Made by a program: the position numbers and the translations under genes. A model generated the notes under the pieces. It searched no databases. It worked only from the letters and a program-made list of their open reading frames with translations, and was not told the DNA's origin. A stretch of 5,754 bases of DNA, taken from a virus (lineage: Monodnaviria; Loebvirae; Hofneiviricota; Faserviricetes; Tubulavirales; Inoviridae). Below are positions 844 to 1,026 of the stretch, one piece after another (positions within the stretch are counted from its first letter, which is position 1; each line of letters begins with the position of its first letter). Location of the stretch: positions 1 to 5,754 of IMG/VR virus record IMGVR_UViG_2698536559_000001. One strand, 5' to 3'.

Positions 844-1016
844 ATGCAAAAGACAGAAATCCGGCTACAAATACCCGTTGATGTAATAAAGAAGATAGAA
901 AAAATTATCGAACGACAGAATATAACTGTTGATGATTATATTGTTTCATCTGTTTCAGAAGTTGCTGACCGTGATTTTCGCAACATTGTTAAGCCTTTCT
1001 CTTTTGATTTTGGGGG

Positions 1017-1026
<10 letters not shown>
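844..1026 (+). CDS. Hypothetical small hydrophilic protein (60 aa), possible ribbon-helix-helix-like DNA-binding protein
   Basis: ATG 844 to TGA 1024-1026 with a weak GTGAG ribosome-binding site upstream. Sequence MQKTEIRLQIPVDVIKKIEKIIERQNITVDDYIVSSVSEVADRDF has a short strand-like segment (IRLQI) followed by two helix-like segments, as in CopG/Arc-type folds; it has no signal peptide or transmembrane segment. Its end overlaps the pIII start by 10 nt. The fold assignment is inference. Confidence 0.4.

Follow-up and report, generated by a model that had tools for sequence, protein, structure and literature searches.

Small ribbon-helix-helix (RHH) proteins such as Arc, CopG and ORF56 of pRN1 are encoded just 5' of a gene whose expression is kept low, and they repress the promoter that they share with it. 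The arc and copG genes are each co-expressed with the next gene, whose product is harmful in excess, and the RHH antitoxins follow the same logic as these repressors. The gene described here, orf60, lies directly 5' of gene III (gIII) in an E. coli inovirus prophage. Its product resembles Arc (P22, arc-ant) and CopG (pMV158, copG-repB) in size (53 and 45 aa, respectively, against 56–60 aa), in its predicted RHH topology with a weak in-register alignment of strand, helix A, turn and helix B, and in being encoded directly 5' of, and presumably co-expressed with, a gene whose product may be harmful in excess. It differs from them in showing no significant sequence similarity, in being acidic, in its N-x-T turn and in an extra conserved C-terminal motif; in addition, orf60 does not come first behind a recognisable promoter, as the Arc/CopG design would have it, and the search for an operator found none. 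The RHH type II antitoxins (TacA/DUF1778, ParD, RelB, MazE7, CopA_SO, AtaR and KacA) are the best structural matches to ORF60 and are likewise acidic and encoded by genes that overlap the downstream gene; unlike them, ORF60 has no toxin partner, a C-terminal extension that is too short and no family-level sequence match.

RHH proteins have also been described in filamentous phages. ORF13 of Pseudomonas phage PMBT54 is an omega-like RHH protein for which its authors suggest a function in episome maintenance (PMC10534721), and the Pf4 antitoxin PfiA is an RHH protein of the PfiAT toxin-antitoxin accessory module (PMC13048266). Neither is reported to lie between the coat gene and gene III, and a profile search detected no sequence relationship between ORF60 and either protein.

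The Ff phages (M13/fd/f1) and YpfPhi/CUS-1 share with our locus the order single-stranded DNA-binding gene, small cap-like gene, gVIII, terminator, gIII, gVI, gI and gIV. To our knowledge nothing coding lies between the terminator and gIII in the Ff phages, and orf60 is absent from them. YpfPhi-like relatives have only a 24–27-aa ORF at this junction, and orf60 is additionally present only in the E. coli lineage; the YpfPhi morphogenesis module has been described without an orf60-like gene (PMC4266046). The UPphi phages were considered as possible members of this group and were set aside as IKe-like and of a different lineage (PMC7307601). In the literature searched we found no paper on this E. 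coli prophage lineage or on ORF60, and no dedicated regulator at the gVIII-gIII position.

Gene order of the prophage structural module

The stretch of DNA analysed here (the window; 5,754 nucleotides of IMG/VR record IMGVR_UViG_2698536559_000001) is the structural and assembly half of an E. coli inovirus prophage, and its gene set is common to assembly contigs L003–L008. Related prophages are present in 27 of 5,426 complete E. coli genomes, with 90–92% identity across the alignable parts. The window's genes listed next are on the + strand. The window begins with the C-terminal part (1–273) of a gene for a 141-aa protein with a weak G5P-like match, followed by a 57-aa ORF with a hydrophobic tail (279–452) that probably encodes a pVII/pIX-like cap protein. 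This ORF has a C-terminal transmembrane segment, lies directly 5' of gVIII and gives weak matches to phrog_1147 and phrog_969, both of unknown function. The gVIII-like major coat gene (455–706, 83 aa) has a weak Pfam Phage_Coat_B match (E 5.8e-4), and its product shares 90% amino acid identity with the homolog in L001, a locus of a second E. coli clade (clade 2).

A G+C-rich, intrinsic-terminator-like hairpin (718–746; core GGGCGG-ATAT-CCGCCC, then a T-run) lies 3' of gVIII, with a predicted folding energy of −19.8 kcal/mol (z −2.3) and a perfect 10-nt inverted repeat at 722–741. It was missed by a simple terminator scan. The hairpin is kept in L001, and an equivalent one is seen 3' of gVIII in Klebsiella L024 and Rodentibacter L022. 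The original prediction had orf60 inserted after the terminator; the hairpin is real, but orf60 is not the first thing to follow it, as orf25 (760–837), a conserved 25-aa hydrophobic ORF with one transmembrane helix, lies between. Next come orf60 (844–1026, 60 aa) and gIII (1023–2624), which encodes the 533-aa adsorption/minor coat protein from a GTG start (gene calls in L004–L007; the C-terminal part matches PHROG 7187). Gene calls in related contigs place gVI (DUF2523) at 2642–2929, gI (Zot) at 2941–3999 and gIV (secretin) at 3996–5255. The region after gIV (5256–5754) is non-coding and G+C-rich. The window's last ~90 bases are ordinary E. coli chromosome and have matches in about 1,300 complete genomes of this species, which puts the prophage end near 5540–5665. 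Strain JNE112863 has 10 places that match a query from the window end.

This one structural module is joined to two unrelated replication modules (L001 1846–4817; L004 1287–3287; L006 184–2153). The first carries a Phage_GPA endonuclease resembling P2 gpA, to which L001 and the ybiJ-ybiB integrated copies add an IS110-family transposase; the second carries an HTH repressor together with G2P_X_C (Ff gII-like) and Phage_DNA_bind (gV-like) proteins. No DNA-binding domain could be recognised in the small ORFs 5' of the replication gene, which speaks neither for nor against another repressor.

Relatives were collected by an alignment-based scan of species-representative genomes, which gave 40 loci with gI products 31–59% identical; the same scan with a single pI protein in place of the alignment gave no matches. 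Hosts of these loci include Yersinia pestis (YpfPhi), Klebsiella michiganensis, Providencia, Brenneria, Haemophilus, Rodentibacter and Arsenophonus, and further loci come from MAGs assigned to Burkholderiales and Alphaproteobacteria. Where the gVIII-gIII junction is resolved, most relatives, YpfPhi included, have gVIII, a 24–27-aa hydrophobic orf25 homolog and then gIII. The orf25-like proteins share a motif that is roughly W-x-[ML]-[IL]-F-F-x-x-G-[LI]-x-[CS]-A-x-x-V-I-x-G-[LI]-x-G, and in L022, L024 and L031, whose junctions were inspected base by base, the orf25-like stop overlaps the apparent gIII start, as ATGA in L024. With the orf60 profile, none of the 40 loci gives a match even when filters are switched off and the limit is set at E<10, and the two nearest deposited inoviruses (gI about 39–40% identical) have only 52–84 nt between gVIII and gIII. 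Since relatives have orf25 joined directly to gIII without orf60, orf60 is an insertion specific to the E. coli lineage, one that split an ancestral direct orf25-gIII coupling and kept coupling on both sides. Its position had been called unusual, and its absence from the two nearest deposited inoviruses and from about 40 relatives bears this out. No source of the inserted gene was found.

By the same comparison, orf25 is the ancestral gene directly 5' of gIII; it may encode a missing pVII/pIX-like cap protein or a small effector in the membrane. The window's orf25 (MWEFIFMMYGSLCGLCCVMGFKSNM) has a GGAG Shine-Dalgarno sequence at 752–755 and differs from the clade-2 copy in 13 codons, of which 8 are synonymous and 5 conservative. 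The E. coli RefSeq relatives examined carry no annotation for it. Counterparts lie at 5754–5831 in L001, 5363–5440 in L024 and about 4971–5054 in L031, and conservation reaches from the E. coli phage to the inoviruses of Yersinia (YpfPhi), Klebsiella, Haemophilus and the Burkholderiales and alphaproteobacterial MAGs.

Coding evidence for orf60 and its probable translational coupling

The reading frame runs from ATG 844 to a TGA stop at 1024–1026 and specifies 19 charged residues. ORF length alone is not significant here, as the window's six-frame list holds many spurious ORFs, and we accept orf60 as a gene because it is conserved and not because of its size. Its counterpart in clade 2 is a 56-aa ORF in the same place (L001 5838–6008, annotated as WP_179146067.1). 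The blastn alignment of the window with L001 ends at 846, beyond which the DNA is too diverged; the two proteins nevertheless align end to end with ~47% amino acid identity. Between the clades pS is 0.72 (synonymous sites are saturated) and pN 0.34, giving a dN/dS of 0.19, and within the window's clade dN/dS is 0.17–0.28 at an unsaturated dS of 0.2–0.34. The gene is also annotated as a CDS in RefSeq relatives. Thus orf60 is a genuine protein-coding gene, and the original prediction of a 60-aa charged ORF between the major coat gene and pIII was right to the exact coordinates. Conservation of the frame in related phages, which had been put forward as a check, holds across the two E. coli clades and fails in more distant relatives. 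We also considered an RNA gene in the region; this reading found no support, and there are no Rfam matches there.

In the sequence GTGA, the stop of orf60 overlaps GTG 1023, the most plausible start of gIII. This start is the one picked by the gene callers in L004–L007, and a pIII translated from it begins with a normal signal peptide that has a basic N-region. The gIII Shine-Dalgarno sequence is G-rich, lies in the last codons of orf60 (1012–1020) and varies in sequence and length between alleles, the variable stretch sitting 2–3 nt 5' of the GTG. The alleles GGGGGGTGG, GGGTGGTGG, GGGAGGTTG and GGGGGTGG give orf60 proteins that end in GGWS, GWWS, GRLL and GGGREIK, respectively. The end of orf60 varies freely between alleles; the constraint on its last codons evidently comes from their use as the gIII ribosome-binding site and not from the protein. 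The G6, G5, GGGTGG and GGGAGG variants, which may stem from slippage, selection or sequencing error, alter both the orf60 C-terminus and the overlap with gIII, and a G7 allele would join orf60 in frame with gIII. The GTGA overlap is kept in four of the five sequenced alleles, orf60 in the G5 allele extends 10 nt beyond the GTG, and in clade 2 the two genes are separated by a 4-nt gap (TGA-TGAA-ATG). At the other end, orf25 stops 6 nt 5' of the orf60 ATG, and its stop codon falls within GAG/GAGG, the orf60 Shine-Dalgarno sequence. The junction geometries of all alleles and of clade 2 fit coupling or re-initiation, and the GTGA stop/start overlap is of the kind expected from the translational coupling first suggested for it. 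We picture, on sequence grounds, a coupled chain orf25 -> orf60 -> gIII in which orf60 would be translated as the middle link, with the 6-nt gap and GAG/GAGG as its upstream connection and the GTGA overlap, with the gIII Shine-Dalgarno sequence inside orf60, as its downstream one.

Such geometry raises the question of whether the ORF60 protein matters at all, or whether orf60 is a spacer that brings ribosomes to the gIII start and encodes a functionless peptide. Tight coupling at both ends of the gene and freely varying last codons that double as the gIII Shine-Dalgarno sequence are in keeping with a spacer, but residues 1–54 are strongly conserved while synonymous sites are saturated (the dN/dS of 0.19 above), the predicted fold is consistent in both clades, and relatives couple orf25 to gIII directly with no spacer. 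We find this explanation scarcely credible.

Distribution of orf60 and the divergent block around it

An exhaustive profile HMM search of 1.84 billion representative proteins found no orf60 homologs outside the two E. coli clades, and the matches in a word-indexed search of 5.8 billion proteins were from E. coli only, in the same two clades. Megablast, blastn and tblastn searches of deposited phage genomes gave no relative of the region or of the orf60 protein. A 5144-aa repetitive protein (P0024) with 36 weak matches to the orf60 profile was rejected as spurious, and two frameshifted orf25/orf60 fusions (P0022 and P0023) were uninformative. Being absent from relatives, orf60 does not belong to the inovirus core gene set (Ff genes I–XI and analogues). 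Within its own lineage the picture is different: clade-2 orf60 is present in 45 of 45 prophage copies from the 27 complete E. coli genomes, all IMG/VR or assembly loci covering the region have orf25 followed by orf60, and orf60 occurs with either replication module. There it has the character of a core gene in the structural module rather than of optional cargo. Among the functions originally offered for it (regulator, DNA-binding accessory protein or small cargo gene), cargo is the least likely, because the gene is in every copy of the lineage, accompanies either replication module and sits inside a chain of coupled genes.

The window and L001 are 90–100% identical in the flanks of this region but only 52–82% identical over 801–2400, a block that comprises orf60 and about 460 gIII codons; dS in the block is above 1.2, compared with 0.1–0.28 in the flanks. 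Divergence of orf25 is intermediate and above that of gVIII. Because synonymous divergence is so much higher than in the flanks, the block appears to have been exchanged by recombination rather than to have evolved faster, which points to recombinational swapping of a receptor-binding cassette. As a result orf60 is physically linked with the receptor-binding half of pIII.

This linkage bears on the possibility that ORF60 is a type-specific immunity or exclusion factor that is inherited in one cassette with the part of pIII that binds the receptor, and that protects the lysogen from superinfection by phages of the same pIII type or regulates something else specific to that type. That orf60 and the N-terminal ~460 gIII codons form one block with saturated synonymous divergence between clades is what recommends the idea. 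Physical linkage alone explains the co-inheritance, however, and orf25 at the left edge has also diverged more than gVIII, so the block may run from the terminator to mid-gIII. In addition, it is not obvious how an RHH protein in the cytoplasm could bring about exclusion at the receptor level, and up to four prophage copies of the same type are found in one genome. We judge such a function to be highly improbable.

Within gIII, a 12-nt tandem repeat (2110–2269, 10–13 copies) encodes a (Gly-Thr)n tract in the pIII linker. The gIII products in related loci are 533, 545, 557, 619 and 623 aa long, and the tract matches repeatedly in L004, L005 and L007 by blastn; these length differences and repeated matches suggest that the (Gly-Thr)n copy number varies. 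On the antisense strand a spurious 150-aa (Pro-Val)n ORF results (1919–2371).

Predicted fold and possible role of ORF60

AlphaFold2 monomer models of ORF60 were built from a shallow alignment of 12 sequences (Neff 1.5). The model for the window's clade (pLDDT 71) has an extended segment at residues 1–11, a helix at 12–25, a turn at N26-I27-T28, a second helix at 29–48 and a floppy end, and the clade-2 model (pLDDT 75) has the same topology with its second helix at 29–49. The protein ends with a conserved motif (D44–F54) and a variable end (55–60). The strand is predicted to be extended and unpaired in these monomers, and both models superpose on the beta-alpha-alpha unit of solved RHH proteins. 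The top 50 Foldseek matches in the PDB are almost all RHH proteins (among them CdbA, ORF56, CopA_SO, AtaR, CopG, Arc, KacA, NikA and AmrZ), with E-values that are individually not significant for so short a chain, and the named BFVD matches are mostly RHH, Arc-type or antitoxin proteins.

Weak sequence matches to RHH proteins agree with the models and all share one register. In a PDB profile search Arc residues 9–44 align with ORF60 residues 5–40 (E 0.48), a PHROG Arc-like repressor family matches weakly (E 0.017), and hhalign gave P values of 0.007 for Arc and 0.029 for CopG. Polar E5, R7 and Q9 in the presumed strand are interleaved with hydrophobic I6, L8 and I10 (F6, V8 and L10 in clade 2); the strand is followed by P11, and the N26-x-T28 turn is invariant in both clades, with Asn in place of the Gly of G-x-S/T. 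No Pfam, NCBIfam or PADLOC family was matched, and no curated RHH family exceeded threshold, the one Pfam RHH match at E<=10 being RelB-like, in 2 of the 12 members at E 0.18; single-sequence phmmer found no match in the PDB. We consider it quite probable that ORF60 has the RHH fold, and the ribbon-helix-helix-like pattern noted in the original prediction has gained the backing of structure predictions for both clades and of the fold search. ORF60 is then a new, lineage-restricted sequence family of a known and very common fold, and remains a hypothetical RHH protein of a narrow lineage.

RHH neighbours in the structure search also include ParB-pCXC100, NikA and MatP, as might be expected if ORF60 were a DNA-binding accessory factor for replication, integration/excision or packaging, like the RHH accessory proteins of relaxase and partition systems. 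Against such a role, orf60 travels with the structural module, which is combined with two unrelated replication/integration modules, and relatives replicate and assemble without it; we think its chances slim.

Our preferred reading, to which we would give a little under an even chance, is that ORF60 acts as a small, dimeric RHH protein regulating the gIII-gIV operon and is the middle link of the orf25 -> orf60 -> gIII chain. It is built on analogy with the arc-ant, copG-repB and antitoxin-toxin operons. An RHH protein of Arc/CopG size, ORF60 would presumably form a dimer that binds phage DNA and feeds back on transcription of gIII-gVI-gI-gIV in a dose-dependent and probably negative way; the envelope proteins encoded there are expected to be harmful in excess. 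Scans of the + strand from the terminator to gIII (window 400–1200; L001 5400–6200) gave no sigma-70-like promoter in either clade; these scans are crude, with counts at chance level, and the terminator scan had overlooked an obvious hairpin. A repeat search found no convincing repeated operator between the terminator and gIII in either clade. The sole inverted repeat inside orf60 (914–947) was discarded, as it is not seen in the clade-2 sequence when the alignment is read.

Properties of the protein also speak against the simplest form of the regulator reading. ORF60 is acidic (pI 5.2–5.7, net charge about −1.5), compared with a pI of about 9.5–10 for Arc and CopG, and the strand residues presumed to read DNA differ between the clades (K3/T, T4/Q, R7/K and Q9/K). 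Moreover, its best-conserved segment is E39–F54, with 13 of 16 residues identical between clades against 14 of 38 for residues 1–38. This segment includes the C-terminal motif DFRxIVKPFSF (D44-F45-R46-x-I/V-V-K-P-F-S-F), and its conservation suggests a protein-contact surface, either for self-association on DNA or for a partner protein. If ORF60 is a regulator, the motif would mediate higher-order assembly or contact a conserved partner.

The same properties could instead mean that the RHH scaffold serves mainly for protein binding, ORF60 being an orphan antitoxin or adaptor whose DFRxIVKPFSF motif neutralises or recruits a host or phage protein (a host toxin, a defence factor, or an assembly or replication protein), with DNA binding secondary or absent. 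The top structural neighbours of ORF60 include the antitoxins TacA, MazE7, ParD2 and RelB, many antitoxins are acidic, conservation of the C-terminal 16 residues far exceeds that of the RHH core, and orf60 overlaps the next gene as happens in toxin-antitoxin operons. However, it has no toxin-like neighbour, as the flanking orf25 and gIII have no Pfam, PADLOC or NCBIfam toxin match, and all relatives have orf25 and gIII without orf60, so that neither needs ORF60 as an antidote. The tail past helix B is also only about 10 residues long, and the toxin-neutralising domains of ParD, RelB and TacA are much longer. We regard this alternative as unlikely, though the most serious competitor of a regulator of gIII-gIV.

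A bolder form of the regulator reading, and one that we think decidedly unlikely, is that ORF60 represents a new inovirus control element, an RHH sensor of its own dosage that is inserted at the coupled orf25-gIII junction and throttles the adsorption, assembly and export genes, or docks through its DFRxIVKPFSF tail onto a conserved host or phage protein; in both cases it would be co-inherited with the receptor-binding half of pIII, so that each type of virion tip comes with a matched regulator. Control of gIII and of the assembly and export genes downstream bears on how temperate filamentous phages stay non-lethal, and a regulator heading gIII, if there is one, would offer a simple, testable handle in prophages of diarrhoeagenic E. 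coli. The orf25-like membrane ORF coupled to gIII is broadly conserved, and may prove to be a more general finding than orf60 itself.
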